From a virus (taxonomy: Duplodnaviria > Caudoviricetes), in IMG/VR virus record IMGVR_UViG_3300033067_000068, positions 1-59,658 of that record: a stretch of 59,658 nt of DNA. One strand, written 5' to 3'. Numbering within the stretch: position 1 is the stretch's first letter; the number at the start of each line of letters is the position of its first letter. The notes beneath the pieces were generated by a model that saw nothing but the letters and a program-made list of their open reading frames with translations, searched no databases and was not told the origin of the DNA. This document shows positions 20,562 through 59,658 of the stretch, in pieces. The position numbers were made by a program, and so were the translations under genes.

Positions 20562-22037
20562 TCAAGTGTACGAGTACCCGGACTTCTTGATCTCCCGGCG
20601 CGTGCTGCTGAGCGTAGCGCCCCGGATATTCATGTCGATCACTGAGTCCGCGTACTGGTTGGCGTCGTGGACGTGCGAGAACGCGTTCTTGTCTGGCTTG
20701 TCTTCCATCTCCCCGGACTTTTTGATTTTGTACCGGTAGCCGTACCGGAAACCTTTGATGAGCTGCGTGCAGCTTGGGTCGATCAGGTACATCGCCTTAC
20801 CTTCCAATTGTTGAACGAGCAAGCGCTCGACCGCCTGAATCCGCTTCTCGGGGTCGTTTGTCGGTGGTTTCTGACACTTGAACCCTGCGTTTTTCACGAT
20901 ATCCACCAGCGACAACTCGCCTTGCTGCTGCTTGGCGTACCCTGCTGGGTCCGGCGCTACGAGGAACGAGCACCCCTGCATGTTGTTGGCGATGAACGGG
21001 TTGAGCTTGGTCCGCAGGAATGTCTCGATGCCCATGTTCTCTGACGTCAGCTCGGCCAGAGTCACTACGCGCCCACGGGGGTCACGTTGCTTGAACACGG
21101 CTGCCGGTGTGCGCCCGAAGTCAAGACCGATGATGACCGGGTACTCCTCACTGCGGATCGGCTTGATCCTGTCCTTGGAAACGTGGAACTCATGCGTGAA
21201 CGTCTTCTCATACACTGGTGTGCCGGACAGCGAGCGCCCGTACTCCGATCGCAGGTACACACGCAGCCAGTCTTCAGTCTTGCCCGGGATGATGTTGGGG
21301 TAGTACTGCTTGGGCAGGTGGTCGTAGTTGTCACACTCGGGGTTGACCGCCCACTCGTTGTCGTCCTTGTCCAGCAGGACTTCTTCTGGCTCCTCGCCGA
21401 ACCGCTCAAGGTACACGGACGGCTTGATGATCGCCGCTGGCTGTTTGTGGATGGCCCAGTTGCTCGGCGGATTCTCCATTTTGTCGTGCCACCATGTGTC
21501 CTCGTCGGGCATGTTGGTATCGAACAGCGCACACGACCGGGTGGGCCCACCGTCCTTGGCCGACGGGTATCGGTTCAGACGCGACAGCAGGCCGTCAACA
21601 ACTTCACTGTTGAGCTCTCGGCTCTCGTTACCCCACAGGAACGTGGTCTCCAGCGACAGCGCCTTACGCACGTCATCGGGAGTATCCAGTGGGATGAAAA
21701 TCCATTCCGACTCGACCTGAGTCCCATCGGGCAGTTTGGCCATCAGGATAAACGTCTTCTCCACAGCCTTCCAGATACCAGCCTCACCGGGCGGCAGCCA
21801 GTCGAACACCGTCTTCCGTGTGGTCAGCGCCAGCTGGTCAGCCGTGTTACGCACGATGATCGCCCGGGTCTTGCGCACTCCCTTGGCGTTAGGCGCTTGG
21901 CCACAGGCCAGACGCACCAGCTCATGTACACACGTCACCGACTTGCCGCCACCCACCGGGCCCGCCAGTACACGGACGTAGGATTCATCCAGCATGAAGT
22001 TGCGCTGGGTCTCGGTCGGTTTGTATGTACTGCTCAT
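20562..22037 (-). CDS. terL: terminase large subunit
   Basis: Walker A GPVGGGKS, IVRNT, GLDFGRTPAA RNase-H-like nuclease motif, SHVHDANQY. Confidence 0.93.
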   Translation of the reverse strand: MSSTYKPTETQRNFMLDESYVRVLAGPVGGGKSVTCVHELVRLACGQAPNAKGVRKTRAIIVRNTADQLALTTRKTVFDWLPPGEAGIWKAVEKTFILMAKLPDGTQVESEWIFIPLDTPDDVRKALSLETTFLWGNESRELNSEVVDGLLSRLNRYPSAKDGGPTRSCALFDTNMPDEDTWWHDKMENPPSNWAIHKQPAAIIKPSVYLERFGEEPEEVLLDKDDNEWAVNPECDNYDHLPKQYYPNIIPGKTEDWLRVYLRSEYGRSLSGTPVYEKTFTHEFHVSKDRIKPIRSEEYPVIIGLDFGRTPAAVFKQRDPRGRVVTLAELTSENMGIETFLRTKLNPFIANNMQGCSFLVAPDPAGYAKQQQGELSLVDIVKNAGFKCQKPPTNDPEKRIQAVERLLVQQLEGKAMYLIDPSCTQLIKGFRYGYRYKIKKSGEMEDKPDKNAFSHVHDANQYADSVIDMNIRGATLSSTRREIKKSGYSYT

Positions 22038-22898: not shown

Positions 22899-22912
22899 GT
22901 GTGTATACACAC
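22899..22912. promoter_or_regulatory. palindrome GTGTGTATACACAC copy 1 (putative operator)
   Basis: Perfect 14-bp palindrome abutting a minus-strand TAGAAT (22918-22913) upstream of the RHH gene. Confidence 0.75.
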
Positions 22913-22975
22913 ATTCTACCGGGATTTTTTGTGTTTTGGGAGGATTTTAGGGGTGTTATAGGCTAAAAGTATTAC

Positions 22976-22989
22976 GTGTGTATACACAC
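22976..22989. promoter_or_regulatory. palindrome GTGTGTATACACAC copy 2
   Basis: Exact match. Confidence 0.75.
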
Positions 22990-23031
22990 AATCCTATTTT
23001 TTGGTCATGCTGTTTGAGCGCCTCGTAAGCA

Positions 23032-23074
23032 GGGGCGGGCCGGGGGGTGGGGGTGGGGGGCCTGTGGGGGGTGG
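23032..23074 (+). other. G-rich tract (multiple G runs)
   Basis: GGGGCGGGCCGGGGGGTGGGGGTGGGGGGCCTGTGGGGGGTGG. Confidence 0.8.
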
Positions 23075-23078
23075 TCCG

Positions 23079-23130
23079 GTTATCAAGGTTGCCTACTGTG
23101 TAGGGACCCTGAGTTATCAAGGTTGCCTAC
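23079..23130 (+). repeat. 18-bp direct repeat GTTATCAAGGTTGCCTAC x2
   Basis: Copies at 23079-23096 and 23113-23130. Confidence 0.9.
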
Positions 23131-23486
23131 AGTGAAGCGGTGATCGTACCGCATCGCCCCGCGATCTTTAAAAATCAACGAGTCAGTTTCATGCGCCCCG
23201 CGCTTTGTGCTTTCGCTTACATGGGTCAATCCATCGTTGGCAAGGCGTGAATAGTCACGGGCGGTCAACATGGTGCGGATTCGTGTGGGCTTCGGTCATT
23301 AAAAATTCAGTAGCGTTTTGAGAGTTTGGGTGAAGTAACTCTCCGGTATAAGTCTGCCGCATCACCTAACCCGCGATCATGCGGCATGGTGTAAACGTAC
23401 CTTGGCAGGGTACGGCGGCGGGCTATTAAGTGTGCATTGATTCACAGTGCTCACCTTGTAGCTCAACACTTTTCAAAGGAATCAAA

Positions 23487-23936
23487 ATGTCCAATCAAAT
23501 TACCGTGCAAGACTTGCAGTTGTCTATCTACAACAACGCCGAAAGCGGCGGCATGGTCACAATGAACGCCAAGGGTAAATCCGGGTCGTTCGCTCGTGCT
23601 ATCGCCTTCGCAAGCCGTGAGGCCCGGCAAAACTTGTCGGCAGGCATGATGCTTAAGCAACTGCAGAATGGTCAGTATCGCCCATTGGTGTCTGACATTC
23701 TGTCATGCGGTCTTATCCCCAAAGCCAACTTGGATTGGGTGTCTGCATCCATCCCTGCATCTGGCCCAATCAACCGCGATACCCTCATCGGTCTGTGCAA
23801 GCAAGTCAAAACTGTGTACGACAACAAGCGCACCAAGAACGGCGACCCCGTGGCGCTCAAGGGCGAAAAGGCTTTCGTCATGGGTTTCGTGCAGGCCATC
23901 GTTGCTGACGTTGCAGATACAACCATTGACGCCTAA
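23487..23936 (+). CDS. first early-arm gene, hypothetical protein
   Basis: AAGGA RBS, strongly biased codon usage, 149 aa. Confidence 0.8.
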   Translation: MSNQITVQDLQLSIYNNAESGGMVTMNAKGKSGSFARAIAFASREARQNLSAGMMLKQLQNGQYRPLVSDILSCGLIPKANLDWVSASIPASGPINRDTLIGLCKQVKTVYDNKRTKNGDPVALKGEKAFVMGFVQAIVADVADTTIDA

Positions 23937-23938
23937 TT

Positions 23939-24154
23939 ATGCGAGTCCACACAGTGCCCTTCGGGGCGCTCAATATCCCAATGCCGCCACTCGCTAAGGT
24001 CGAGGGTGTATCGAGGCTTCAAGGCGGCTTGCCGCCCATTCCTTACCGCACTGCAACCACAAGGTGGACGTCATGCACCGCCAAGTGGGGGCGTGAGCCA
24101 TTCAACTGCAAGCAAATCAAGGGCGAGGTCTTGGCCGAACGCCGCGAGGCGTGA
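23939..24154 (+). CDS. possible hypothetical protein
   Basis: 71-aa ORF directly after the previous stop; no clear RBS. Confidence 0.4.
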   Translation: MRVHTVPFGALNIPMPPLAKVEGVSRLQGGLPPIPYRTATTRWTSCTAKWGREPFNCKQIKGEVLAERREA

Positions 24155-24155
24155 G

Positions 24156-24205
24156 GTGTGTATACACACCTTTTAGGCCATGACACACCATGTGTGTATA
24201 CACAC
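24156..24205. promoter_or_regulatory. palindrome GTGTGTATACACAC copies 3 and 4
   Basis: Exact copies at 24156-24169 (extends to an 18-bp palindrome) and 24192-24205. Confidence 0.75.
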
Positions 24206-24210
24206 CTTGC

Positions 24211-24545
24211 AATTAGACAACTATCCAAGGGGGCTTTGCCCTTGTCTAATTAGGTTTCCCTTTAAAATCAATGGGTTAGACGTGCAATTAGACAATTAGA
24301 CAATTAGACAAGATTTTAGGATGCACATGACGATGCGCGTGTTGTTCCGTGAAGGCGCGTGAAGCGCGCCACAAATATCACGACCCCTAAAAATCCTGAC
24401 CCCCTCTGCCAGACTTGGATAATTCGAGTAGGGTAAACCCTAATATCCCCTCGCCAAGCCAGTATCCATGCGGGTTCCAGCCCGCCCCCTAATTATCCAA
24501 GCCCCTCAAATTTTGGATAATTGCACCCCGAACTTTTGGATAATT
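24211..24545. repeat. cluster of AATTAGACAA / AATTATCCAA motifs in both orientations
   Basis: Copies at 24211, 24242 (inv), 24286, 24294, 24302, 24415 (inv), 24491, 24513 (inv), 24536 (inv). Confidence 0.85.
24266..24278 (+). promoter_or_regulatory. IHF consensus site
   Basis: AATCAATGGGTTA matches WATCAANNNNTTR. Confidence 0.55.
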
Positions 24546-24554
24546 ACCCTCAAC

Positions 24555-24769
24555 GTGTGTATACACACCTCATGGAGATCATCATGTCCAGACAATTCTT
24601 CGTCATCCCAACCACTGAACGTGTGTATACACACATGGACGAACCCCTCGATGAACCATACGTTTTCGAGGCCACTACAGACCACAATCCACTCGACATG
24701 GATGACCCCGAGTTCTCATACCGCGAATACTTGGCCGAACGCTTTGCAAGATAACGTGTGTATACACAC
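24555..24769. promoter_or_regulatory. palindrome GTGTGTATACACAC copies 5-7
   Basis: Exact copies at 24555-24568, 24621-24634 and 24756-24769, each preceded by AAC and followed closely by ATGGA. Confidence 0.75.
24584..24754 (+). CDS. 56-aa acidic protein
   Basis: GGAG RBS; MSRQFFVIPTTERVYTHMDEPLDEPYVFE... Confidence 0.6.
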   Translation: MSRQFFVIPTTERVYTHMDEPLDEPYVFEATTDHNPLDMDDPEFSYREYLAERFAR

Positions 24770-24781
24770 ATGGAGAACCTC

Positions 24782-24979
24782 ATGGAGAACCCAGCACTAA
24801 CCATTCGCATCGAACTGCGCGACGTATATGGCAAGCAAACCGCATACCCTGTGTGCGCCACGGCACAGACATTCGCCGACATAGCCGGGACCAAAGTCCT
24901 AACTGACCAGACGCTCCTGCGCATAGCCGCCCTTGGCTACACCATCATCACAACCCAGCGTGAATGGAGAAAGCCATGA
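24782..24979 (+). CDS. small hypothetical protein
   Basis: GGAG RBS; DVYGKQTAYPVC..A..FA.IAGTK.LT...I.ALGY.I. Confidence 0.75.
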   Translation: MENPALTIRIELRDVYGKQTAYPVCATAQTFADIAGTKVLTDQTLLRIAALGYTIITTQREWRKP

Positions 24980-25101
24980 CCCTACACACCGACAGAGGAA
25001 GCGTCCCATCCGTATGGCAGGACGATGGCTTCGGGACACTGCGGCGCATCACGTTCGCATCGCTCATCGCTCGCGTATCAGCCGGGTGGAGAGAACTGTA
25101 A
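24976..25101 (+). CDS. 41-aa hypothetical protein
   Basis: MTLHTDRGSVPSVWQDDGFGTLRRITF...; overlap-coupled at both ends; not in track. Confidence 0.6.
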   Translation: MTLHTDRGSVPSVWQDDGFGTLRRITFASLIARVSAGWREL

Positions 25102-25337
25102 TGGCCGAGGAACGCAAATGCTACAAGCCCGGCGATACGTTCACACACCAGATGCTGGAGTTCGCGGCACACCATTACAACGGACATAAAGGTTGTGAGC
25201 CCTGCGTTGGAAACCTACACTTCAACGTCTGCGACATTCTGCCGAGTGGGTGCGGCAGAGATGAAGTCGTATGGAAGGCCAGAAACGAGTCGGCCAAGGT
25301 ACTGCACGTACTAATCAAACTGGAAGGAACGATATGA
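25101..25337 (+). CDS. Cys-rich hypothetical protein
   Basis: GGAG RBS; GCEPC...C...GC; ends IKLEGTI. Confidence 0.65.
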   Translation: MAEERKCYKPGDTFTHQMLEFAAHHYNGHKGCEPCVGNLHFNVCDILPSGCGRDEVVWKARNESAKVLHVLIKLEGTI

Positions 25338-25417
25338 CCTACTGGAAACTCTGCCTCGCATGGTGCGTGAGCCTAGCCATCGTCCTCATGGACCTGTTGG
25401 TGTGGAGGCCGGGATGA
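25334..25417 (+). CDS. 27-aa membrane peptide
   Basis: MTYWKLCLAWCVSLAIVLMDLLVWRPG; ATGA overlaps at both ends. Confidence 0.65.
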   Translation: MTYWKLCLAWCVSLAIVLMDLLVWRPG

Positions 25418-25653
25418 GATGGGATGACGCATTCAAAGGTGGCCACGAATGCTACCAATGGTACGACCTGCTAGAGGGTGAAGGCACTGACACAGACGAA
25501 CTGCTTGGCTACGTCAGGGAGAACTTGGTAGACCACACGTTCGTCGCACAAATCAATGACGGCCTACAACCAACAGCCAAGTTCAACAACCTCGAAGACG
25601 CCAAGGCGCACGTCGTTGCCTACTACGTAGTGCAGAAACTGGAGGGCACATGA
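25414..25653 (+). CDS. small early protein, paralog family A
   Basis: GGAGG RBS; MRWDD...KFNNLEDAKAHVVAYYVVQKLEGT. Confidence 0.7.
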   Translation: MRWDDAFKGGHECYQWYDLLEGEGTDTDELLGYVRENLVDHTFVAQINDGLQPTAKFNNLEDAKAHVVAYYVVQKLEGT

Positions 25654-25928
25654 CACACAAGTTCGTGTGGGATAGCGGCATGGCGTACATACGCTGTGTC
25701 ATCACACCCAAGGTACGCATCACCACAAAAGCGTGGGCTGGTTCAACCAAACCCCTATGGGTCGATGCTGTTGGATTCGTCAAGGTCAACGCTGAATGCT
25801 ACGAAGGACACATCTACGGCACGGTGTCACCAGCACCCCCCAAACGATTCGCCAACCTAGGCGATGCCAAGGCATACGTAGAAGAGCAAGCGCTCATCGG
25901 TCTTACGGTAAACAGACTCAACGTGTAA
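25650..25928 (+). CDS. small early protein, paralog family A
   Basis: MTHKFVWD...RFANLGDAKAYVEEQAL. Confidence 0.7.
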   Translation: MTHKFVWDSGMAYIRCVITPKVRITTKAWAGSTKPLWVDAVGFVKVNAECYEGHIYGTVSPAPPKRFANLGDAKAYVEEQALIGLTVNRLNV

Positions 25929-26054
25929 GCAGCACGACAGCTTACATACGCACAATCACGTACATATTCAGGCTACCCTGACGTTCATGCGTCACGCTCA
26001 GGGGCAGGCATCCAGACGCACATCATCTTTTCTTCAACACACAAGGAAAACATC

Positions 26055-27059
26055 ATGCGATTCAGCAACATCAAAACATCCGTGCTCTCCCAGTTCCAAG
26101 TCGATGGCGGTAACGCTGTCGTGCCGTTCATCCTCGGCGCTCCCGGTGGTGGTAAGTCGGCCTGTGCCCGTGAGATCATCAACGCACTCGATATCCCCGA
26201 GTCCAACGTGGTCGAGTTCACTGCGTCCCTGCGTGACCCTGTTGACGTGCTTGGCGTACCTGACAACACAGGCGAGTACACACGCTGGGTGCCACCGCAA
26301 GAGTTCTACAACCTGCGCCAAGGTGTCGGTCGGTCAGCACTCATTCTGGAGGAACTGTCGGACGCGCCTGTGCCCATGCAGAACGCGCTGTGCGGTGTGA
26401 TCTACGACCGTCGTGCTGGCAACCTCAAGCTGTCCGATCAGTTGTTCATCATCGCAACTGGCAACCGTACCGAAGACAAGTCTGGTGCCAACCGCATCAC
26501 ATCCAAGCTGGCCAACCGCACACGCCGCTTCGACTTCCAAGAGAACATCGACGACTGGACCGAGTGGGCGCTCGACAACGACATTGACCCTGTGCTGATT
26601 CAGTTCCTGCGCTTCCGTCCCGGCCTGTTGTCTGACTTCGATGCCAACCGCTTCGCCAACCCTACACCTCGTGCGTGGGAGCGTGTCAACCTCATCCCCA
26701 GTACGCTCGACTCTGGCCTGTTCTTCGACAACTGCGCTGGTGAGGTCGGTGAGGGTGCCGCCGCTGAGTTCACTGGCTTCAAGCGTATCTACGAGAACCT
26801 GCCTGACGTTGACTCTATCCTGCTCGACCCAGCTGGTGCCGATGTGCCCCAAGACCCTGCAACGCTGTATGCCCTGACTGGTGCGCTGGCCCGCAAGTCC
26901 ACCAAGGACAACTTCGACAGGGTAAGCCGCTATTTGAGCCGACTCTCACCGGAGTTCAACGTCATGGCTACCAAGGATGCGATCAAGCTTCAGCCGACCA
27001 TCAAACACAGTCGATCTTTCGTGGAGTGGGCGTCTAAGCATGCTGAGGTGTTGATGTAA
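26055..27059 (+). CDS. MoxR/dynein-related AAA+ ATPase
   Basis: Walker A GAPGGGKS, Walker B LILEEL, ATGNRTED, LANR, PTPRAWE. Confidence 0.88.
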   Translation: MRFSNIKTSVLSQFQVDGGNAVVPFILGAPGGGKSACAREIINALDIPESNVVEFTASLRDPVDVLGVPDNTGEYTRWVPPQEFYNLRQGVGRSALILEELSDAPVPMQNALCGVIYDRRAGNLKLSDQLFIIATGNRTEDKSGANRITSKLANRTRRFDFQENIDDWTEWALDNDIDPVLIQFLRFRPGLLSDFDANRFANPTPRAWERVNLIPSTLDSGLFFDNCAGEVGEGAAAEFTGFKRIYENLPDVDSILLDPAGADVPQDPATLYALTGALARKSTKDNFDRVSRYLSRLSPEFNVMATKDAIKLQPTIKHSRSFVEWASKHAEVLM

Positions 27060-27061
27060 CC

Positions 27062-27367
27062 ATGTCACGGGCATACACAAACTACCGTTGGGAGCCGGTC
27101 AATGTCCGCAAGGGTGATCGGTTTCACTACAAGCGCGACGTTGTGTACTCAGACATGCCGTGGCGAACGGCTGAACCCCAAGTCATCGCCACGGTTACAT
27201 ACGACGACAAGTACACGTCACCCTACTGGGGCAAGTGGCATATCAACTTCGGTGCCCAGTCACCGGGGTTGTACGCACTGCGTACGCAGGATATACCCAC
27301 GTTAAGTAGGAAAGACGACGCCATTGCATGGGCTACGGCCATGATACGACTGGAGGGTGCGATATGA
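27062..27367 (+). CDS. small early protein, paralog family A
   Basis: NYRWEP...TLSRKDDAIAWATAMIRLEGAI. Confidence 0.7.
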   Translation: MSRAYTNYRWEPVNVRKGDRFHYKRDVVYSDMPWRTAEPQVIATVTYDDKYTSPYWGKWHINFGAQSPGLYALRTQDIPTLSRKDDAIAWATAMIRLEGAI

Positions 27368-27639
27368 AGATCAAGGGACTTACATGGACGACACACGACG
27401 ATGGCGAGACATGGCTACTTACAGCAATCGTTGCCAGTTCAGACAAGCTGTGGGGGCGACGATTGCTGTTCGAGGTCACGTACTTAGGGCGCACGCAAGT
27501 CGCCTTCGGTGGTGGCCGCGAACGCTGGAAGGTGTACGACCGCCGCTACTGGATTGACGACCCAGAAGACATACCCGAGTTCGCCCATTCCTACGAAGCC
27601 AAAGCTTGGGTTGATTCTGTTGTGAGGCTAGAGATATGA
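27364..27639 (+). CDS. small early protein, paralog family A
   Basis: GLTWTT...EFAHSYEAKAWVDSVVRLEI. Confidence 0.7.
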   Translation: MKIKGLTWTTHDDGETWLLTAIVASSDKLWGRRLLFEVTYLGRTQVAFGGGRERWKVYDRRYWIDDPEDIPEFAHSYEAKAWVDSVVRLEI

Positions 27640-27836
27640 ACTCAGTTTTCAACGCCCACCTAGATTACAAGGTCAGGCAGCAGGTCAAGCGAGGTAAGAA
27701 AACAGGCCGATGGTACGTGCAGTTCTATCGACTTGCACCGCACTATGGGTTCTGGAAGGTAGGTGGAGCCAAAGGTGATTTCCAATCCCGCGAAGAAGCC
27801 GTTGCTCGGGTTAACGCTCTGAGGGTCATGTCATGA
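27636..27836 (+). CDS. small early protein, paralog family A-like
   Basis: GRWYVQFY...DFQSREEAVARVNALRVMS. Confidence 0.65.
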   Translation: MNSVFNAHLDYKVRQQVKRGKKTGRWYVQFYRLAPHYGFWKVGGAKGDFQSREEAVARVNALRVMS

Positions 27837-28117
27837 GTCTAGTATGGGAAGAGGACTACTTCTATACCAGTACGCAGACAACAGACCGGGCGGTTAGCTG
27901 GCATCTCAAAAGGATGGTACCTGCAAAAGACCCCATGGCTATGGCACCGTATAACATCATGACTGGGCCTTACTCAATAAGCCTCGCATGGGTACACCAG
28001 AGGGGCGAGCGTAAGTACCACGTGAGTTTCGTCAACAACTTTGACAGCGGCAAGACCTTCAGGTCTCTGAAAGCAGCCAAGGCGTATGCCTTGGCAATCG
28101 TTACATTGGAGCAATAA
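27833..28117 (+). CDS. small early protein, paralog family A
   Basis: MSLVWEE...TFRSLKAAKAYALAIVTLEQ. Confidence 0.7.
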   Translation: MSLVWEEDYFYTSTQTTDRAVSWHLKRMVPAKDPMAMAPYNIMTGPYSISLAWVHQRGERKYHVSFVNNFDSGKTFRSLKAAKAYALAIVTLEQ

Positions 28118-28118
28118 C

Positions 28119-28640
28119 ATGACAACAAGAAAGAAAGCAGTAGCAATGACTGAGGAGCCAACTGAGCTTCGCAAAGCTACGGTCAAAGAGATCGCAGACA
28201 AGCTAAAGGATGCGTTCACCGTAGTAGCCACAGAACGGGCAGATCGTACTGAGGCAGAGGCAGTTGTTGGAGAAATCATCCGTGACCTTGAGGTACAGAA
28301 GCGCGAAGTCACCATGAAACTGCTAGGCCTCGACAATCGTTGGGGTAAGTGGGAAGTCGACCACTGCAATGGGCGAACGTCTCCAGTCACGGAGTACCTT
28401 GCAAGTGAAGGGCGTGATTTGATTAAGGCTTGGGTTAACGAAGCGGTCAAAGAAGTCTTCACCACTACATACAAAGACAAGTTCATGAAAGATTGCAAAT
28501 CTGCCCTCTTGAGAGACCTCAAAGACATTAGCGGCTACAAAACTCGCGAGTACATAGAATCCTCGGTATCGAGAATCCGCATGGCGCTGATGGAAGACGC
28601 AGCCAAAGAACTTCGTGCGGAACTTGGTTTACTTGATTAA
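28119..28640 (+). CDS. hypothetical protein
   Basis: GGAG RBS; LLGLDNRWGKWEVDHCNGRTSP motif. Confidence 0.75.
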   Translation: MTTRKKAVAMTEEPTELRKATVKEIADKLKDAFTVVATERADRTEAEAVVGEIIRDLEVQKREVTMKLLGLDNRWGKWEVDHCNGRTSPVTEYLASEGRDLIKAWVNEAVKEVFTTTYKDKFMKDCKSALLRDLKDISGYKTREYIESSVSRIRMALMEDAAKELRAELGLLD

Positions 28641-28651
28641 GGAGCAACAAC

Positions 28652-29524
28652 ATGACACACACCAAACTTTCCGACAAGGCAGTTCTCGTCAAGCTGACAC
28701 TTCGTCGTGCAGCACTCACCAAGCGGGACCATGGACTTACAGCAACCTTACAACAGCAGGAGAACGATACCAGCCTGACTGTATTGACCAAGCTGTTCAA
28801 GAACAAGGACTCAGCGATCAACCAGATCATGGCCAAGTACGGCGAGGTCTACGCCTACCACAAGAAGCACACGCTGCCTTACGTTGACGCTGGACCACGC
28901 ATCCTGCCAAACGATATGTACATGGAGTACACGCAGGAGATGAAGCACCGCATCGCAGAGGTTGACAAACTGCTCGACACTTACATGCCAATGTATGACC
29001 AGCTAGTGGCTGATGACGTCATGTACCGCAACTCCGGCCATGCAGCCGGTCGTGCCAACGCATCCGAGTACCCCACTGCCGAGCAGTTCCGACTGTCCAT
29101 GTCCGCCGAGCTCAGGTTCCAGCCTATGGCTGATGCCACCCACTTTTTGTTCGACCTATCAGAAGATGACTTGGCCTCGTTCAAACGTGCAGAGGAAGAA
29201 GCCGCAGCCGCAGTCAACGCTGACACCATCCAGCGCATGCTCAAGCCCATCGCCTCGCTTGTGACCAAACTCGCTGAGTACCAAGGTGCCAAGGGTGAGC
29301 GCTTCCACAACAGCCTGATCGACAACGTGATCGAGGGATGCAAGCTGGCACGCAAGCTGGCAATCAACCCAACGCAAGCACTACTCGACGAGATCACTGC
29401 ACTGGAAGAAGCCGCACAGGGTTACTTGGCAGACGTTGAGATGATTAAGGGTTCAGCCAACAAGCGAGTCGAAGCCAAGCGCAAGCTGGAAGAAGTCGCC
29501 GCACGAATGGGAGCATTTGGATGA
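28652..29524 (+). CDS. DUF3150-like helical protein linked to AAA/vWA module
   Basis: AVLVKL...TKLF...HTLPY.D.GPRILP...EYPT motif; AAGGAG RBS. Confidence 0.65.
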   Translation: MTHTKLSDKAVLVKLTLRRAALTKRDHGLTATLQQQENDTSLTVLTKLFKNKDSAINQIMAKYGEVYAYHKKHTLPYVDAGPRILPNDMYMEYTQEMKHRIAEVDKLLDTYMPMYDQLVADDVMYRNSGHAAGRANASEYPTAEQFRLSMSAELRFQPMADATHFLFDLSEDDLASFKRAEEEAAAAVNADTIQRMLKPIASLVTKLAEYQGAKGERFHNSLIDNVIEGCKLARKLAINPTQALLDEITALEEAAQGYLADVEMIKGSANKRVEAKRKLEEVAARMGAFG

Positions 29525-29718
29525 ACTTCTCTGACCTTGAGTACGTGCTCATGATCGCTGTGGCTGTACTGCTGTGGCGTAACTCCGTGCTGCGCAATGC
29601 AGCTGCGCAGGAAGAACGACGGGCTAACAAGTACGCCAACTGGTTGATTGGCGTGTATGAAAAGAAAGGAAAGATCGTGCAGAAAGATGACAGCTACTAC
29701 TTCGAGGAGAGTAAATGA
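29521..29718 (+). CDS. small N-terminally anchored membrane protein
   Basis: YVLMIAVAVLLW hydrophobic segment. Confidence 0.65.
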   Translation: MNFSDLEYVLMIAVAVLLWRNSVLRNAAAQEERRANKYANWLIGVYEKKGKIVQKDDSYYFEESK

Positions 29719-30254
29719 AAGACATGAACAACAACGAACGTGGGCGTATCACCGGTATGCCCGGTACAGAGACAACAGTTACGCTGTATCCACAACGCCT
29801 GACTGCAAGGATGCGTAACAGCATCATCCGTATGATCGAGGCTAGGGCTATCACTGGCGGCTGGTCGTCGCAGGCACGCAGGCTGGCTGAGAACATAGCC
29901 GAGAAGTTCAACATTCAGTGCAGCGTAGTCAACGGATACCGAGGCATGCGTATCGTAGGCTTGTCAGAGGCAGCTGCCACGCACATCGCAGAGGTTGTGC
30001 AGGCTGACTGGACCGCGTGGTTACTTGAGAATCCCGCATACGGCAAAGGCTGGTACCGCGACCGACATGACAGCACTATGCGCAGCATCAGCAACCTCGA
30101 CGACAACTTCTACTGCAACCTCCAAGACAAGGAGTCAACTCGTAAGGTTGTAGAAATCTTGGCCGAGCATACTACACAGGAGATGAAAGACAAATCCAAG
30201 CATGTAGCAGACCTACTCAGAGGCACTGAGCCAATCAACATCGTTACTTTCTAA
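29715..30254 (+). CDS. hypothetical protein
   Basis: 179-aa ORF, GAGGAG RBS, ATGA overlap. Confidence 0.75.
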   Translation: MKDMNNNERGRITGMPGTETTVTLYPQRLTARMRNSIIRMIEARAITGGWSSQARRLAENIAEKFNIQCSVVNGYRGMRIVGLSEAAATHIAEVVQADWTAWLLENPAYGKGWYRDRHDSTMRSISNLDDNFYCNLQDKESTRKVVEILAEHTTQEMKDKSKHVADLLRGTEPINIVTF

Positions 30255-30264
30255 GGAGCACATC

Positions 30265-31371
30265 ATGGCAGTTACCAAACTCGACCGCGCCAAAGTTGCC
30301 GTAGTCACACAGCATCCGTTCTTTGCATCCATCTTGATGAAGCGCAAGCTCATCCCCGACAACACCATCCCTACTGCGGCTGTTGACCAGCGCGGTCAGA
30401 TTTACTACAACGAGCAGTTCGTCGAGAAGCTGTCTGTTGACGAGCTTGTGTTCCTGCTGTGCCATGAGGTCGGCCACGTTATCGGTCAGCATGCTGCCCG
30501 TGTCGGCTCACGCAACCGCAAGAAGTGGAACATCGCTGGCGACGCATGGATTAACGACATGCTCAAGGACGCAGGCATCGGCTCCATGATCGAGGGTGGT
30601 GTCAACATGCCCGGCTCCAAGGACGAGACCGTTGACGAGATTTACAACAAGCTGCCCGACAACCCCAACGGTGGTGGCCCCGGTGGTACTGGTGATGACC
30701 TGATCGAGCGCGGCTCTCCCATGACACCCGAGGAAGCTGATCGCATCGACGCCGAGACTCGTGTGGAGATTGCCCAAGCAGCCCAAGCAGCCAAGGCTCA
30801 GGGCAAGATGCCCGGTGCTCTGGCCAAGATCGTAGCTGACCTCATCGACAGCCACACCCCATGGCACGATATTCTTGAGCGCTACATGACAGCGTTCACC
30901 CGTGGTGACTACACATGGGCACGACCCAACCGTCGCTTCGCCAACGCATACCTGCCATCGACCGGCAAGTCCCCTGAGATGGGTGAGATCGTCATCCAAG
31001 TCGACGTGTCTGGCTCTATCAGCAAGGTCGAACTCGACCACTACAACGGCCACTTACAGCGCATCGTGTCGATGTGCAATCCAACTCGCACCCACGTCTT
31101 GTATGTAGACACTGCGGTGGCTAAGCACGATGTGTTCGAGCAGGGCGAGGAGGTGGCTCTGACGTTCTACTGCGGCGGCGGCACTGATATGGAAGAGGGC
31201 TTCAACTACATCGACAAGGAAGGCATCAAGCCAGAAGTCTTTGTCTGCCTGACAGACGGCTACACCGACTTCAATACGGCCAACGCCCCGGACTATCCCG
31301 TGGTCTGGTGTATCTCTAGTGACATTGAGGCTCCATACGGCGACAATATCCACTTTACCTTGGAGTACTGA
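30265..31371 (+). CDS. metallopeptidase-like + vWA domain protein (DUF2201-like)
   Basis: HEVGH zincin motif, WNIAGD, MIDAS DVSGS, GGGTD, LTDGY. Confidence 0.88.
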   Translation: MAVTKLDRAKVAVVTQHPFFASILMKRKLIPDNTIPTAAVDQRGQIYYNEQFVEKLSVDELVFLLCHEVGHVIGQHAARVGSRNRKKWNIAGDAWINDMLKDAGIGSMIEGGVNMPGSKDETVDEIYNKLPDNPNGGGPGGTGDDLIERGSPMTPEEADRIDAETRVEIAQAAQAAKAQGKMPGALAKIVADLIDSHTPWHDILERYMTAFTRGDYTWARPNRRFANAYLPSTGKSPEMGEIVIQVDVSGSISKVELDHYNGHLQRIVSMCNPTRTHVLYVDTAVAKHDVFEQGEEVALTFYCGGGTDMEEGFNYIDKEGIKPEVFVCLTDGYTDFNTANAPDYPVVWCISSDIEAPYGDNIHFTLEY

Positions 31372-31372
31372 A

Positions 31373-31537
31373 ATGGCTATGAACATCGACGAAGCAATTG
31401 ACAAACTGACTGAGCAATACGACGACGTGCTACGTGCATGCTACGACGCACTTGCTGCAGACGTACCACAGGCAACCCGTGATGCACTCCGACAGTCTAT
31501 CGCTGACCACCTCGAATCACCCGATACAGAAGAGTGA
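31373..31537 (+). CDS. small acidic protein
   Basis: GGAG RBS; MAMNIDEAIDKLTEQYDD... Confidence 0.6.
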   Translation: MAMNIDEAIDKLTEQYDDVLRACYDALAADVPQATRDALRQSIADHLESPDTEE

Positions 31538-31571
31538 ACGTATCCGCATAGAGCGGAGCAACACCGTTGGC

Positions 31572-31724
31572 GTGCAGGTAGTGCGCAACCAGCAAGGCTG
31601 GCACGTCAACGTCTCAATCAACAAGGTGCCCCATACACACTATGGGCCCTTCCAAGAACCAATAACGCTCACAGAAGCAATGGTCTACGTCTCAACACTA
31701 ATCAAACTCGAAGAAGGAATTTGA
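31572..31724 (+). CDS. small protein, family A-like C-terminus (start uncertain)
   Basis: GWHVNVS...ITLTEAMVYVSTLIKLEEGI; frame open from 31434. Confidence 0.45.
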   Translation: MQVVRNQQGWHVNVSINKVPHTHYGPFQEPITLTEAMVYVSTLIKLEEGI

Positions 31725-31725
31725 C

Positions 31726-32397
31726 ATGGCAACCGTATACATCACCAAAGAACTTATCACTCGTGTGCAGTCAGTCATCGAAAAGATGCGCATGGCCGAG
31801 CGAGCCAGCGACTTACCCAACATCGACAAGAACTGCAGCGTTGACGCTAGCCAGCTGTACAACATCGGATGCTGGGGTGCTGAGCACGTACACCTCAAAG
31901 ACATTATCCCAAAGAACTGGATGCAGGAAATAACAGAAGCAAATGTGTCTGTACGTGGCACACTGGAAGACGGCAGCGAAATCAAGACTAGCATTCGGTT
32001 TACTGGCATGACTATGGCGTACCAGCGACCAGCGACAGACTACTGGAACAGATCGACCTCCGAGTTGACGCTTGACCAGCTGCGTGCCTTGCCAGAAGAT
32101 ATGCCCGGTCGCGCCGAGTTACTCCAGCGATGGGACGATGCTGTACTGGAGTTCGCACTCATCGCACGATGGAAGAAAGTCAGCGACGATATCTCTAATT
32201 TCCTCAAGAAGTGTAAGTCACTTAACGAAGCAGTCAAGTTGTTCCCCGGCGTGCGTATGTATATCGACCGGGTAGACGTTGAGCGCCTTGACCGTAAGAT
32301 CGAGCGCCAGTCACAGCGCAAGCAGATCGTTGAGAGCGTTGACACTGAGGGACTTACAGCAGCGGCCATTGCAGCTAAGCTCGCTCAGGCATCATGA
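31726..32397 (+). CDS. Nmad5-like protein
   Basis: MATVYIT...FLKKCKSLNEAVKLFP motif resembling nucleotide-modification-associated domain 5. Confidence 0.5.
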   Translation: MATVYITKELITRVQSVIEKMRMAERASDLPNIDKNCSVDASQLYNIGCWGAEHVHLKDIIPKNWMQEITEANVSVRGTLEDGSEIKTSIRFTGMTMAYQRPATDYWNRSTSELTLDQLRALPEDMPGRAELLQRWDDAVLEFALIARWKKVSDDISNFLKKCKSLNEAVKLFPGVRMYIDRVDVERLDRKIERQSQRKQIVESVDTEGLTAAAIAAKLAQAS

Positions 32398-32642
32398 ACA
32401 ACCACCAGCTAGAAGCCAGAGCTGCCAAGGCTAAAGTTGACAGTCTGAACAAGCACATCGAGGTCTTGCAAGAGCACATCGCCAACCTGCAAAAGACAGT
32501 CCGAGCGACCAATGAGCTTGTAGATAGTCTGCGCGGTGCCAAGCAGCAGCTTGAGCTGTTCGTGGCTTTCGCCAACAAGTACTACCCCGGCAGCATCGAG
32601 CAGTTCAAAGCAATCAAAGCACTTGAAGGGAGAGTGGAATGA
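32394..32642 (+). CDS. coiled-coil protein, paralog pair B
   Basis: Heptad repeats; ends FVAFANKYYPGSIEQFKAIKALEG. Confidence 0.7.
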   Translation: MNNHQLEARAAKAKVDSLNKHIEVLQEHIANLQKTVRATNELVDSLRGAKQQLELFVAFANKYYPGSIEQFKAIKALEGRVE

Positions 32643-32863
32643 GCCTATCAGCCCAGATATCAGAGATGGAAGATGAGCTACAACATTACCAGAGTGAGAA
32701 CGGTGAACTACGTTCTGAAATAAACAAGCTTGAAGATCGGATTGAAGGCCTTGAGTATGACTGTGAGTACATGGGCAAGTTCATCCAGTACATCGACAAG
32801 ACCAACCCCGAGCTGCGCGTGGCGTACGAAGCGGCGCAAAAACTTGAAGGAGAGAGGACATGA
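32639..32863 (+). CDS. acidic coiled-coil protein, paralog pair B
   Basis: Heptad repeats; ends FIQYIDKTNPELRVAYEAAQKLEG. Confidence 0.7.
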   Translation: MSLSAQISEMEDELQHYQSENGELRSEINKLEDRIEGLEYDCEYMGKFIQYIDKTNPELRVAYEAAQKLEGERT

Positions 32864-33137: not shown

Positions 33138-33778
33138 CACCCCTCGAAAGATTCAACAACCTGCCAGCAAGAGTACGCGACGAGATACTGGACAAGCATC
33201 GCAACTGGAACGTAGAACACCTTGACTGGTGGGATGGTGTGTACGAACAGTTCGGCGAAGACATGGAGAAGCTCGGTATCGAGGTAGACAAGATGTACTT
33301 CAGCGGCTTCTGGTCGCAGGGTGACGGTGCATGCTTCGAGGGACGTGTGCGCGAGTGGCCTCTGTTCTTGGAGTCGCTTGGGTATACGGAAGCAGCACTC
33401 ATAGATCATGCAGATGCGCAGTTTCAACTGTATGTCCACCACAGCGGGCACTACTACCACGAGAACTGCACCATGTTCGAGACAGACCTGCCACTACCTG
33501 AGCATGACGAAGACCAAGACTTCATTGACGGCTACTGCCCACACGAACCAGAGTCACTGCATGAAGCTGCGTGGATGGCTCTCATCAATGGCTACAGCCA
33601 CGACTCTCTGGAGCAAGAGTTTATCGAAGCGTTCAAGAACCACATGCGCGAGCTTTACAACAGATTGGAGGCCGAGTACGACCATCTCACATCTGACGAA
33701 TCTGTACTGGAATCCCTTGACACCAACGACATGTTGGAAGACTTAATCAACGATCACATGGAGTGCGAAGATGCCTGA
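33134..33778 (+). CDS. highly acidic conserved phage protein
   Basis: YFSGFWSQGDGACFEG, HYYHEN, LEAEYDHLTSDE motifs. Confidence 0.75.
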   Translation: MTPLERFNNLPARVRDEILDKHRNWNVEHLDWWDGVYEQFGEDMEKLGIEVDKMYFSGFWSQGDGACFEGRVREWPLFLESLGYTEAALIDHADAQFQLYVHHSGHYYHENCTMFETDLPLPEHDEDQDFIDGYCPHEPESLHEAAWMALINGYSHDSLEQEFIEAFKNHMRELYNRLEAEYDHLTSDESVLESLDTNDMLEDLINDHMECEDA

Positions 33779-34262
33779 CTTGAAATCTGAATTGAAGAAA
33801 CTCGAAGCCTTGAAGTTTGACGACGAGGGTACAACACAACCGGAAGTTATCACACAAGAAGCACCTGCACATGAGGGCGTATCCGAGACGATGTTCCGTG
33901 TCATCAAGGACAATCCCGGATGCAACCGAGCAAGGATCATGACATTGGCAGAAAACGCTGGTGTAGCGCGTTCGTCGTCTTCGTCGCTGCTCGGCCAGTT
34001 TGTCAAACGTGGACTGCTACGAACTGAGGAATCTCCAGCAGGTCTCATATACTTTGCTGTGGCTCAGGCGTACAAGCCTGGTTATGTAAAGCAAAAGAAG
34101 AGAACTACCAAGCCATTGCATACGGCAGACGCTACCATCAAACCTGTAGCGGCAATCCAAAAGCAAGATGCTAGCGTGCAAGACCTGCTGGATAGTATGT
34201 CCATCACCACTGCCAGAGCGCTGTATGACGAGCTTCGCAAAATCTTTTGGGGTTCTACGTGA
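33771..34262 (+). CDS. winged-helix-like DNA-binding protein
   Basis: FRVIKDNPG..RA.I...SSSSLLGQFVKRGLL. Confidence 0.6.
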   Translation: MPDLKSELKKLEALKFDDEGTTQPEVITQEAPAHEGVSETMFRVIKDNPGCNRARIMTLAENAGVARSSSSSLLGQFVKRGLLRTEESPAGLIYFAVAQAYKPGYVKQKKRTTKPLHTADATIKPVAAIQKQDASVQDLLDSMSITTARALYDELRKIFWGST

Positions 34263-34450: not shown

Positions 34451-34924
34451 ATGCGCAAGCGTAGTAGTTATAGACCAAAGCATGTCTTGGTAAACCCCGT
34501 TGGCTATGTGCTGGAGAGCTTGTCTCCTGTTGCTAGTCACACAGCGTTCATGTTGGACTTGAAGATCAAGAACCATGCGGCTCTTGAGGACATGACCAAA
34601 GGTCGCGCCACTGTGGCTGAGGTCGATACGCTGATAGCTATGGCCAACATAACTGAGGCGTTTGCTCGGCTCGGGTTTGGGTCTGGTTACAGCGACATAG
34701 TACGCGACGGACTTGATGCGTTGCGGTCTGTTGGTGCTCGTGGTGCACCAACCAGTAGGTTCATCCTAAAGGCCAATGAGATGTACGCCCTCAACCAGTT
34801 GATGGAGTTGCACGACGCTCAGCTTGAAGCTGTCACACTAAAAGACATGGACAAAGCTATTGCCCTCGTTCGAGAAGAACACCGGCTGAAGAAAACTAAC
34901 CGCATACTGGAGAAGAACGCATGA
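34451..34924 (+). CDS. conserved hypothetical phage protein
   Basis: MRKRSSYRPK...LMELHDAQL. Confidence 0.75.
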   Translation: MRKRSSYRPKHVLVNPVGYVLESLSPVASHTAFMLDLKIKNHAALEDMTKGRATVAEVDTLIAMANITEAFARLGFGSGYSDIVRDGLDALRSVGARGAPTSRFILKANEMYALNQLMELHDAQLEAVTLKDMDKAIALVREEHRLKKTNRILEKNA

Positions 34925-36018
34925 ACAAAGAAGCAATGAAGCTGGTGCTGGAGGCCGCATATCTGGCTGGATGGAACGCAAGCGGAGAAGGCTATAACTC
35001 CGAATACCCATTTGGCGACCATGCCAGAAATCCAGAAGAAGATGCTGCTTGGATAAAAGACCGTGATAACGCCCTGCGAAAAGCACTGGCAGAGCAGCCA
35101 GCTATTAAGCAGGACTTAACACCTGAGCAGCCAGCACAGCCGCAGCAGGAGCCGGTGGCGGATGAAGTTAGGTGTCCCGAGTGTGGATATCTTACAAAAC
35201 ACACTGAGCACATTGGATGTCTGCGAAAGCAACTCAACGCCATCAATGCTTTTGAGCAACGCAACTTTGCAATTGTGAATATGGACAAATTTCCACCAGC
35301 ACAGCAGATCAACCAAGAGACGCGCATCAAGAACGGTCTGAAGTATTCACCCAACTACGTGGCTGGGTACAACGACGGCTTGAAGGCGGCACTGGCAGAG
35401 CAGCCAGCACAGCAGGAGCCGGGCCGGAATCATTGGGAAGACGGTGATGTATTTGAGCGCATCGGTGCAATGAAAAAGCAGCCAGCACAGCCGCAGCAGG
35501 AGCCAGTGGCGTGGCTTATTGCGTATGAGGTGTGTTGCGGCCGAAAAAACAGGGGATCAAGTCTGAAAAAGTTTGACGAGGTTTGGGCCAAGTGCAGCTT
35601 TGTGTCTGAAGACAAAGATGCCGAAATCAATGCATCTAAATGGCGCAACAGAAAAGAAACAGCCCTCTACACATCCCCACCAGCACAGCAGCAGGAGCCG
35701 CAACCGCCATACGAGTTTGAACGGTATGTGGCTGGAAGCCTGCGGGCGCAAGGCGTAAGGGTGGAACGAGCGACAACTCTGGCAGACGCCATGAGGATTG
35801 CCGCCAAAATTTGCCCTCCAGCAAACCCGCCATCAGCGCCTACGGTGCTGGTCTACACATCCCCACCAGCACAGCGCAAGCCGCTTACGGCTGAGCAGCG
35901 ATTAACGCTGTTTATTGAGCTAAATAAGCCTTGCGTGCAAGTCAGTGGGCCAAGTGAAATGTTTGACATCATCGTCCGAGCCATCGAAGCCGCCCATCAG
36001 ATTGGAGTAAAGAAATGA
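34921..36018 (+). CDS. mosaic protein built from cassettes joined by QPAQ(P)QQEP linkers
   Basis: Recurrent ALAEQPAQ / QQEPVA / YTSPPAQ segments; C-terminal RKPLT...RAIEAAH.I. Confidence 0.8.
   Translation: MNKEAMKLVLEAAYLAGWNASGEGYNSEYPFGDHARNPEEDAAWIKDRDNALRKALAEQPAIKQDLTPEQPAQPQQEPVADEVRCPECGYLTKHTEHIGCLRKQLNAINAFEQRNFAIVNMDKFPPAQQINQETRIKNGLKYSPNYVAGYNDGLKAALAEQPAQQEPGRNHWEDGDVFERIGAMKKQPAQPQQEPVAWLIAYEVCCGRKNRGSSLKKFDEVWAKCSFVSEDKDAEINASKWRNRKETALYTSPPAQQQEPQPPYEFERYVAGSLRAQGVRVERATTLADAMRIAAKICPPANPPSAPTVLVYTSPPAQRKPLTAEQRLTLFIELNKPCVQVSGPSEMFDIIVRAIEAAHQIGVKK
35083..35875 (+). repeat. interspersed repeats with core CCAGCACAGC
   Basis: Core near 35131, 35296, 35404, 35482, 35680, 35866; identity extends to ~24-36 nt between several pairs. 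Confidence 0.88.
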
Positions 36019-36530
36019 AGTTTCACCCATTGCCGCCAGTTGATTTGTTGCGAGAATTGTTGACCTATTGCCCTGAAACTGGCGTTTTTCGCTGGAAGAA
36101 AACTCTCAGCAATCGCGCAAAAGCAGGCAGTCAAGCCGGTGCGCCAAACGGAAAGTGTTACGTTGAAATCAAGATCGACAAGAAGGTTTATAAGGCTCAT
36201 CGCCTTGCATGGCTGTATGTCTATGAGCAAGACCCCGAACAATTTGAAATTGACCACAAGGACTTGAACAAAGGCAACAACAGCATTTGCAATTTGAGAC
36301 TTGTCACCCGTAAACAGAACAACGAGAACATCCCGAAACCAAGAAACAACACATCAGGCGTTCGAGGGGTGAGTTACCAAAAGAAAGACAACAAGTGGAC
36401 TGCCTACATTTACCACAACAAGAAACGGGTTCATCTGGGCAGCTTCAAAGACTTGTCGCTTGCTGCGATCGCAAGGAGAAACGCAGAGGCTCAGATGTTC
36501 ACGCACTCCGGCATCAAGGAGAACACATGA
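36015..36530 (+). CDS. HNH homing endonuclease with AP2-like C-terminus
   Basis: YKAHRLAW, IDHKDLNKGNNSICNLR, NTSGVRGVS...W.A.I...LGSF. Confidence 0.88.
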   Translation: MKFHPLPPVDLLRELLTYCPETGVFRWKKTLSNRAKAGSQAGAPNGKCYVEIKIDKKVYKAHRLAWLYVYEQDPEQFEIDHKDLNKGNNSICNLRLVTRKQNNENIPKPRNNTSGVRGVSYQKKDNKWTAYIYHNKKRVHLGSFKDLSLAAIARRNAEAQMFTHSGIKENT

Positions 36531-59428: not shown

Positions 59429-59658
59429 TTAACTCCTCAACTCAGCCACGAGGGCCAGTGTTTTACCGTAGTCGGTAGTAAGTTCCTCACCGCACTCAAT
59501 ATCTCTGCTGGCTACAAGCCACAGTGCCTCACCGTATACAGCAAACTCGCAGTTCGGGAACGCCGCATGGTTGGAGTAGCGACCGGCCAAAGAGCGTTTG
59601 TTGTTTACCAGCGCAGGGCAGATCAACTCTTGGCTAACAAATGGTCTGGTGGCAAACA
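59429..59658 (-). CDS. SET-domain C-terminal part of the junction-spanning gene
   Basis: (L)FATRPF...AGRYSNHAAFPNC...LVASRDIECGEELTTDY: NHxxxPN and GEELTxDY SET signatures. Confidence 0.85.
   Translation of the reverse strand, partial: FATRPFVSQELICPALVNNKRSLAGRYSNHAAFPNCEFAVYGEALWLVASRDIECGEELTTDYGKTLALVAELRS

Follow-up and report, generated by a model that had tools for sequence, protein, structure and literature searches.

The virus record IMGVR_UViG_3300033067_000068, which is complete at 59,658 base pairs (bp) and was analysed over its whole length (the window), carries six small genes, s1 to s6, on its + strand. They stand at the head of the + strand gene block, among the earliest to be transcribed on that strand, on both sides of a gene for a MoxR-like AAA+ ATPase (AAA, 26055–27059, +), which forms a conserved anchor between two variable sites. 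Upstream of it lie s1 (25414–25653; 79 amino acids (aa), acidic, isoelectric point (pI) 4.4), the start of which overlaps the stop of a 27-aa mini-ORF (ORF, open reading frame), and s2 (25650–25928; 92 aa), with a C-terminal helix longer than in the other members. Beginning 2 nucleotides (nt) past the AAA stop, s3 (27062–27367; 101 aa) is followed by s4 (27364–27639; 91 aa), by the shortened and very basic s5 (27636–27836; 66 aa, pI 10.5), which is without the N-terminal tryptophan strand, and by s6 (27833–28117; 94 aa), the most widespread and most variable type. Overlaps of 4 nt (ATGA) join s1 to s2, s3 to s4, s4 to s5, and s5 to s6. All six ORFs are present where the first-pass annotation had begun them, and the internal starts that it chose for s1 (25414) and s4 (27364) coincide with where the orthologous proteins begin; in the alignment of the s1 subfamily the 14 unique sequences, including that of the window, begin with MRWDD or MKWDD. 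The same annotation had credited most of the proteins with an early tryptophan, which is found within the first 10 residues of five of the six, s5 being the one that has none.

Alone, the six proteins resemble one another only weakly by blastp, and then in the C-termini only (best E-value 4e-4 in a six-sequence database); relatives were therefore brought in. Fifty-two loci were fetched from viral contigs with the AAA protein, 51 of them at 68–96% identity and one at 35%. A hidden Markov model (HMM) built from the six C-termini of the window matched 93 of 4734 six-frame ORFs from the window and these loci at E≤0.01. All 93 matches were on the + strand and at the C-terminus of an ORF, and they included four types absent from the window (t75, t76, t82 and t90). 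The matches were clustered into subfamilies and the subfamily profiles compared all against all with hhalign. Eleven of the 55 subfamily pairs reached a probability of at least 90%, joining s1–s6 into one network: s1–s2 (95.6%), s1–t76 (93.9%), s2–s4 (90.1%), s3–s4 (95.3%), s3–s5 (91.5%), s4–t82 (96.3% over 79 columns), s4–s6 (95.6%), s6–t82 (97.1%) and s6–t75 (95.8%), together with s4–t75 and s4–t90. With reversed targets, none of 110 comparisons reached even 50%. In an alignment of 39 sequences from s4, s6, t75, t82 and t90 (A1, with s4 as its first row), W8 and A79 are invariant and F73, K80 and L89 nearly so. A family HMM recovered s1 at E=4.8e-14 in a search that was self-inclusive, and s5 at E=1.4e-5 over profile positions 27–78 only. 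The reversed-target control and the confinement of the HMM matches to C-termini contradict a similarity at chance level, and on these profile comparisons s1–s6 are diverged paralogs of one protein family. A DNA repeat or recombination linker behind the conserved 3' ends was also considered and was rejected for the window paralogs, the helix-coding stretches of which are 39–56% identical in nucleotides and encode about half of the residues they have in common with differing codons.

Two elements of the original proposal did not survive. The ending [KRT]LE, taken there as a feature of the proteins, is found in four of the six members, and its codons hold the GGAG or GAGG ribosome-binding site of the next gene, 9–12 nt before that start; CTGGAGGG reads L-E-G. 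Operon genes outside the family end in the same way (24933–25337, 32394–32642, 32639–32863 and 34451–34924; endings KLEGTI, LEGRVE, LEGERT and ILEKNA), and in relatives the family tails vary (RLSI, RLDP, LLNQ, ALR). The tail is largely the Shine-Dalgarno site of the following gene and mostly no protein feature. A seventh gene (s7, 31434–31724, +), which had been put forward as a further member, is a conserved small gene with orthologs in 13 loci, and its membership is unsupported (best hhalign probability 12.6%; family HMM E=0.43). The true start of s7 is probably later than 31434, because an ORF begun there overlaps the gene at 31319–31537.

We modelled two of the proteins with AlphaFold2. 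The s4 model (39-row alignment; predicted local distance difference test (pLDDT) 86.1, predicted template modelling (TM) score 0.74) has strands at residues 2–10, 16–24, 30–43 and 53–59, a short bridge at 72–73 and a helix at 76–90. The s2 model, from an alignment of 18 rows (A3), was scored at 89.6 and 0.80 on the same two measures and has strands at 4–7, 13–27, 33–46, 51–55 and 65–67 and a helix at 70–91. The order of the elements is alike in both: a beta-meander, a short strand with the conserved phenylalanine, and the C-terminal helix. Both models also have the same best match in BFVD, A0A6J7WY43 (E=0.013 and 0.023; TM 0.61 and 0.51 for s4 and s2), and have several other small uncharacterised phage proteins in common among their matches there. 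The predicted family fold is accordingly an antiparallel beta-meander with the helix packed on the sheet. The N-terminal strand bears the almost invariant tryptophan, a later strand has a basic-basic-aromatic motif, noticed by eye, such as RKW or RERW, and the amphipathic C-terminal helix follows the pattern F-x5-A-K-A-[WY]-[AV]-x-A-[IV]. Among the proteins matched in BFVD, A0A6J7WY43 and A0A6J5KME3 (both from uncultured Caudovirales), gp200 of Bacillus phage G and a protein of Mycobacterium phage Shipwreck have a family-like size and a predicted sheet with a C-terminal helix (TM 0.5–0.67, Foldseek probability up to 1.00), whereas their Foldseek E-values are only 0.013–0.3 and their identities 8–22%; they may share with the family only a common small fold. 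Foldseek found nothing in the PDB for the s4 model at E≤0.001, and the nearest PDB folds, at low Z, include MmoD, PsiB and the DddA immunity protein, small proteins with an inhibitory or immunity function.

The C-terminal helix had been described in the first-pass annotation as a constant docking helix. Its constancy holds, whereas docking was only an interpretation: since the conserved F, A, K, W/Y, A, I/V and L are mostly spaced as the face that packs on the sheet, the helix looks like a structural keel. Measures of selection were in keeping with a constrained helix in most of the family. In five of seven subfamilies the helix was more constrained than the rest of the protein (ratio of nonsynonymous to synonymous divergence, pN/pS, 0.23–0.47 vs 0.50–0.64); in t76 the two were equal (0.28 vs 0.27), and in t75 the helix was less constrained (0.74 vs 0.54). 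The s6 type (alignment A2) has an almost invariant helix, TFRSLKAAKAYA, and residues 10–55 are full of substitutions and indels. The helix codons of orthologs showed a lower synonymous divergence (pS) than the remainder in s6 (0.29 vs 0.59) and in t75 (0.18 vs 0.57), a result compatible with recombination, or with extra constraint, at the 3' ends when phages are compared with one another. The claim that the proteins form a single diversified family, in which the C-terminal helix is constant and the beta-rich part variable, is thus borne out by the profile comparisons, the alignments and the two models. We take the tryptophan and the helix as the constant scaffold, with hairpins of the first three strands that vary in sequence and length; these hairpins would constitute the recognition surface.

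The small genes evolve rapidly. The median pairwise dN/dS, the corresponding ratio of rates, was 0.35–0.51 for s1, s2, s3, s4, s6 and t75, compared with 0.18 for t76, 0.12 for AAA, 0.13 for the downstream vWA gene and 0.18 for p290, the gene that closes the variable slot behind AAA. Orthologs of the small genes diverge far more than the AAA protein, and each type occurs in only part of the 52 loci: s1 (36–86% identity to the window protein) and s2 (33–66%) each at 18, s3 (58–80%) at 15, s4 (42–71%) at 14, s6 (33–53%) at 16 and s5 at one (L043, 68%).

The gene order AAA – p290 – (p65) – p179 – vWA – p72 – p223 is conserved, and family members, which range from 63 to 105 aa, occupy two sites in it: up to 1.5 kb upstream of AAA, where the s1 and s2 types lie, and the slot between AAA and p290. 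Forty-eight loci, the window included, contain both AAA and p290 whole; as some of them come from nearly identical phages, the counts lack independence. Their slots hold no member in 7 loci, one in 17, two in 13, three in 8 and four in 3, with a spacing of 27–2216 bp between AAA and p290, and no member was found outside the two sites in these 48 loci. In the 32 loci with at least 1.5 kb of upstream sequence the total runs from zero (4 loci) to six (the window only), a few diverged upstream members falling under the cutoff. Copy number therefore varies, as had been proposed for examination, from 0 to 4 in the slot and from 0 to 6 in total. An s6-type alignment, used without AAA, fetched 13 metagenome loci, every one of which falls in the AAA–p290–vWA module; AAA is seen upstream in nine of them, and in the other four the contig breaks off first. 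The six members of the window are all found within 1.3 kb of AAA, and the rest of its 59.7 kb holds none. Whole-genome searches of two complete relatives likewise placed members near AAA only, and a third complete relative (G001; 59,373 bp, AAA 76% identical) has AAA and vWA and no member anywhere. The genes are thus gained, lost and swapped in two plasticity sites beside AAA, and their translation is coupled in an early operon.

The slot also takes unrelated cargo, comprising HNH endonuclease genes, p184 and a 66-aa gene. The last belongs to a type of 66–73 aa (RDVYG…YPVC…AQ.FA.IAGTK.L) that lies upstream of the array in the window (24758–24979) and within the AAA–p290 slot in L029 (1945–2145) and L032 (4232–4432); since it is found in either site, cassettes move between the two. 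The HNH endonucleases (189–212 aa) stand right after AAA in four relatives (L011, 7052–7624; L012, 2473–3111; L017, 1818–2387; L018, 7010–7603). In L051 the AAA reading frame is in two pieces, and the GenBank note of the N4-like phage KpCHEMY26 describes its ATPase as split by an HNH intron. The 3' side of the AAA gene seems to be a homing-endonuclease hot spot.

That the family is undescribed, as the first-pass annotation had supposed, agrees with the lack of any match in Pfam, PHROGs or PDB sequences: PHROGs gave none for s1–s7 at E≤1, Pfam gave no consistent match to the family, and the best hit of a PDB profile search had E=2.5. A profile search of 1.84 billion cluster representatives returned 42 matches at E≤0.001, 18 of them at or below 1e-10. 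Thirty-seven of the 42 sequences were fetched, and all but one were small proteins of family types. The false positive, P0021, is a repeat protein matched six times on the helix segment. One sequence, P0039 (167 aa), has the family domain twice in tandem (…FPTLEEAKDYAEAIY… and …FRSLEKAKAYAEAY…) and may come from a different phage group; none of the divergent members P0039, P0022 and P0029 was confirmed in viral contigs. Leads from the ESM Atlas for s6 and s5 (named clusters only: YaiA, CedA and DUF4761) scored at most 0.85, the level reached by shuffled proteins, and were set aside as leads only. Among GenBank phages, megablast of 25300–31800 found no near relative and tblastn of s6 no match at E≤1. 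With only 42 matches among 1.84 billion representatives, the family is rare and essentially confined to one phage lineage, the contigs of which come from samples of freshwater type.

A possible relationship for the C-terminal half came from a gene of the window itself. The gene at 36015–36530 is of the HNH-AP2 type, with HNH_3 above its cutoff and AP2 at 26.2 bits, under its cutoff of 33.3 bits. AP2 alignments built from this gene and its relatives were compared with a family profile of 132 sequences; the hhalign probability was 20% with the narrow alignment, 73.2% with a broader one and 86.3% (P 4.8e-6, 32 columns) with the most diverse, of 22 sequences. The same elements, a beta-beta-alpha C-terminal half, were aligned in all three comparisons. 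The controls were low: 1.3% for the reversed AP2 alignment, at most 3.2% in 30 column shuffles of AP2 and at most 0.4% in 30 column shuffles of the family. The AP2/ERF domain (PF00847), which occurs in HNH-AP2 homing endonucleases of phages and bacteria, shares with the predicted fold of the family an antiparallel sheet followed by a helix packed on it, and the two have a pattern in common, K-W-x-A-x-I ... F-x-[ST]-x-[ED]-E-A ... A-Y ... A. Unlike AP2, the family has an extra N-terminal hairpin with the invariant tryptophan and lacks both the G-x-R-G-V first strand and the L-G before the phenylalanine; unlike HNH-AP2 proteins, its members stand alone at 63–105 aa, and some are acidic. The AP2 domain and integrase arm-binding domains belong to the same fold class. 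From the profile comparisons we put a true AP2-type relationship at somewhat better than an even chance, the last two strands and the helix being probably a remote relative of the AP2/integrase-arm type of DNA-binding fold.

Our tentative interpretation, which we favour without holding it to be established, is that s1–s6 are diversifying early binders, probably AP2-like DNA readers. Each paralog would bind its own target early in infection; the likeliest target would be a specific DNA site, bound so as to silence or redirect host or competitor genes, and a host protein would be the second possibility. The charge of the proteins is partly in keeping with contact to DNA, 77 of the 132 members having a pI above 8. 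AP2 domains bind DNA through Arg and Trp residues of their sheet, and the basic-basic-aromatic strand is an indirect hint that the family may do likewise. A precedent is offered by the CasPRs, phage CapR+AP2 proteins that, by the description in a preprint, bind sites inside cas genes and silence them, and such DNA readers can diversify in specificity (10.64898/2026.02.23.707548). CasPRs, as described there, are about 19 kDa, need their N-terminal, zinc-finger-like and cysteine-rich CapR domain and belong to acr loci of Bacillota prophages (10.64898/2026.02.23.707548). The family resembles them, so far as that description goes, in being phage-encoded, diversifying and sited among accessory or counter-defence genes, and an AP2-type module could likewise give each copy its own DNA specificity. 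It differs in having no CapR domain: A1 and A2 have no conserved cysteine column, and A3 has a single invariant cysteine. Because the CapR cysteines are missing, the family is not a CasPR as CasPRs are described in the preprint; by analogy, that preprint makes a diversifying AP2-type counter-defence family a realistic model.

Several observations weigh against DNA reading. Pfam AP2 (PF00847) matched none of s1–s6 at E≤1 and none of the 39 members of A1 at E≤10. The match of 86% over 32 columns is suggestive and no proof, and single subfamilies compared with AP2 gave only 0.6–35%. The 50 matches listed for the s4 model include no AP2-type fold. Members of the s1 subfamily are acidic without exception (net charge −4 to −9), and 21 of the 132 members have a pI below 6, both of which fit DNA binding poorly. 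The strict location beside AAA, together with the outcome of a co-folding calculation with the vWA protein, favours a different function, as follows.

Downstream of p290, the vWA gene (30265–31371, +) encodes a DUF2201-type protein with an N-terminal HExxH metallopeptidase-like domain and a VWA-like domain with DxSxS (DUF2201_N, E=3.4e-48; DUF2201, E=1.1e-18). Across 35 sequences, down to 35% identity, H67, E68, H71, H76, D247, S249, S251, T307 and D331 are invariant; because both the HExxH and the DxSxS…T…D are so kept, the peptidase-like and the VWA-like half both look functional. The PHROGs label of this protein family is 'HNH endonuclease', which looks like a mislabel. The AAA protein matches phrog_1297 (E=1.2e-64), and its AAA_5 score, at 19.7 bits, is below the 22-bit cutoff. 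MoxR AAA+/VWA systems with clients include RavA-ViaA, CbbQ-CbbO and NorQ-NorD, and the array recalls them in that its genes lie between those of a MoxR-like ATPase and of a VWA protein whose metal-site motif is intact. In the titles and abstract openings of the DUF2201 and phage literature we found no paper addressing the function of the phage MoxR/DUF2201 pair.

The members could thus be adaptors, clients or modulators, the constant part of which docks on the DUF2201/VWA protein that works with the MoxR-like ATPase while the variable sheet picks the target. The concentration of all members of the window and of the two further complete genomes near AAA, the fall of every one of the 13 independently fetched metagenome loci in the module, the start of s3 directly behind AAA and the invariant motifs of the vWA protein are all in its favour. 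Co-folding, proposed as a check on the link with the ATPase and vWA proteins, was carried out with s4 and gave weak support. In predictions of AAA with vWA and s4 the median score was 0.41 (runs 0.58, 0.41 and 0.39), against 0.01 for the best of three controls, among them 0.01 with the vWA chain replaced; at least 88% of the contacts agreed between runs and the partner pLDDT was at least 78, the interface not being reported. When the score was calibrated, 58 of 80 solved complexes and two of 110 mismatched pairs reached the mark, with only seven of the 80 solved complexes and both mismatches at or below 0.60; unless the complex was a likely one to begin with, a pass in that range is more often false than true, and the counts are rough for a three-chain job with custom alignments. 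It is the co-fold, which does not show binding itself and which we weigh against none of the accounts, that has raised this interpretation to its present standing, and we consider it a possible, if rather unlikely, account.

The points on the other side are mostly genomic. In line with the linkage that the first-pass annotation had put up for checking, every member in the lineage adjoins AAA, but this linkage is synteny within one phage lineage (AAA 68–98% identical) and no independent co-occurrence. The AAA and vWA genes also occur without members: in the complete relative G001, in the seven of 48 loci with a memberless slot (of the 32 loci with enough upstream flank, four have no member at all), and in KpCHEMY26, where the AAA and DUF2201-VWA genes are directly adjacent without the small family. 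The ATPase itself was matched in 720 GenBank phage records, all below 60% identity, yet s6 matches no phage there at E≤1. The pair is therefore widespread without the family, and the AAA/vWA machine does not need it. The known clients of the cited MoxR/VWA systems, moreover, are large enzymes and no arrays of small paralogs. Within the proteins, a C-terminal acidic residue is not conserved, as the tails RLSI, LLNQ and ALR illustrate, and the conserved helix positions look like core packing. In its most specific form, an array of swappable substrate-selecting adaptors whose scaffold docks on VWA and whose sheets each capture a different host protein (a component of a defence system, say) to be remodelled or cleaved at the expense of ATP, the proposal strikes us as improbable.

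A third account, which we regard as unlikely, makes the members free-standing protein-binding inhibitors of host factors or defence, independent of both AAA/vWA and DNA, with the AAA side merely tolerating insertions. Small early genes that evolve fast and are present in some loci and missing from others would suit such inhibitors, as would a slot that also hosts unrelated cargo such as the HNH endonucleases and the 66-aa gene; the range from acidic to basic charge suggests different targets, and the low-scoring PDB neighbours MmoD, PsiB and the DddA immunity protein are of the appropriate kind. An anti-defence role, as the first-pass annotation had entertained, fits this genomic context. Against it, no named anti-defence protein turned up in general searches, none of which was aimed at anti-defence families, and both the AP2-like signal and the weak co-fold pass would be left unexplained. 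Scarcely credible, finally, is the view that the genes are unrelated and resemble one another by chance or through overlapping signals (ribosome-binding sites or a DNA repeat): the weak blastp scores and the LE(G) tail, truly a ribosome-binding-site by-product, would agree with it, but the eleven high-probability profile pairs against none in the reversed control, the restriction of the HMM matches to C-termini of + strand genes, the common N-terminal tryptophan and predicted fold, the low nucleotide identity with differing codons, and the purifying selection on the helix do not.

The surroundings of the array are those of an early region. Late genes lie on the − strand, with the terminase at 20562–22037 and two giant ORFs of 2047 and 2509 aa, and the early/replication block (about 23.4–48.1 kb, +), with genes of the size of a DNA polymerase and a primase-helicase, begins past a divergent intergenic region. 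In this divergent late (−)/early (+) region a 14-bp palindrome, GTGTGTATACACAC, occurs in seven perfect copies (22899–24769) and nowhere else in the window; shuffled sequences gave an expectation of 0 copies. The copies are likely to serve a regulator of the phage or of the host as operators or as sites associated with promoters. At 33771–34262 there is a MarR/IclR-like helix-turn-helix gene, with weak Pfam matches only. The mini-ORF in front of s1 (25334–25417, +) encodes a hydrophobic peptide (…LMDLLVWRPG) and is joined by ATGA overlaps both to the stop of 24933–25337 and to the s1 start; the C-terminal half of the peptide is kept in many related loci, for example L018, L005, L048 and L006, and it is probably a gene for a small membrane peptide that length cutoffs miss. 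Just upstream of the array, the window (25101–25337, 78 aa), L021 (4344–4595) and L027 (670–888) encode small cysteine-rich proteins that contain several C-x2-C-like pairs, and these genes have no Pfam match.

Behind s6, p184 (28119–28640, +; 173 aa from the ATG at 28119) is an accessory gene of the AAA–p290 slot and no family member; it was seen in only four of the examined loci (L012, L014, L072 and L078). The conserved gene p290 (28652–29524, +) is present in most of the 52 AAA-fetched loci that reach that far and not in L053, the AAA of which is 35% identical. In metagenome loci it adjoins family members or shortly trails them, and p184 or other small ORFs may intervene. For p184, p290, p179, p223, the 25101–25337 gene and other neighbours, Pfam gave no match above cutoff.

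Phages keep functions of host takeover and counter-defence in hypervariable arrays of small early genes, and most of these genes have been assigned to neither a family nor a fold. While arrays of this sort are known, what is new here is, from its sequences, an undescribed and lineage-restricted diversifying family with a constant scaffold of tryptophan plus helix and a variable sheet. The family is now defined by this scaffold and a mapped variable region, by about 40 sequence clusters worldwide, by a fixed genomic address and by a testable link to AP2. If the members do bind the VWA-metallopeptidase, they would provide the first handle on the substrate of a widespread phage MoxR/DUF2201 pair, and if they form a panel of adaptors, phages would encode targeted proteolysis with evolvable adaptors and the AAA/DUF2201 pair would gain a function. 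If instead the members bind DNA, as we tentatively favour, the idea of counter-defence by DNA-binding proteins that silence transcription would extend to a new scaffold and to a new phage group.

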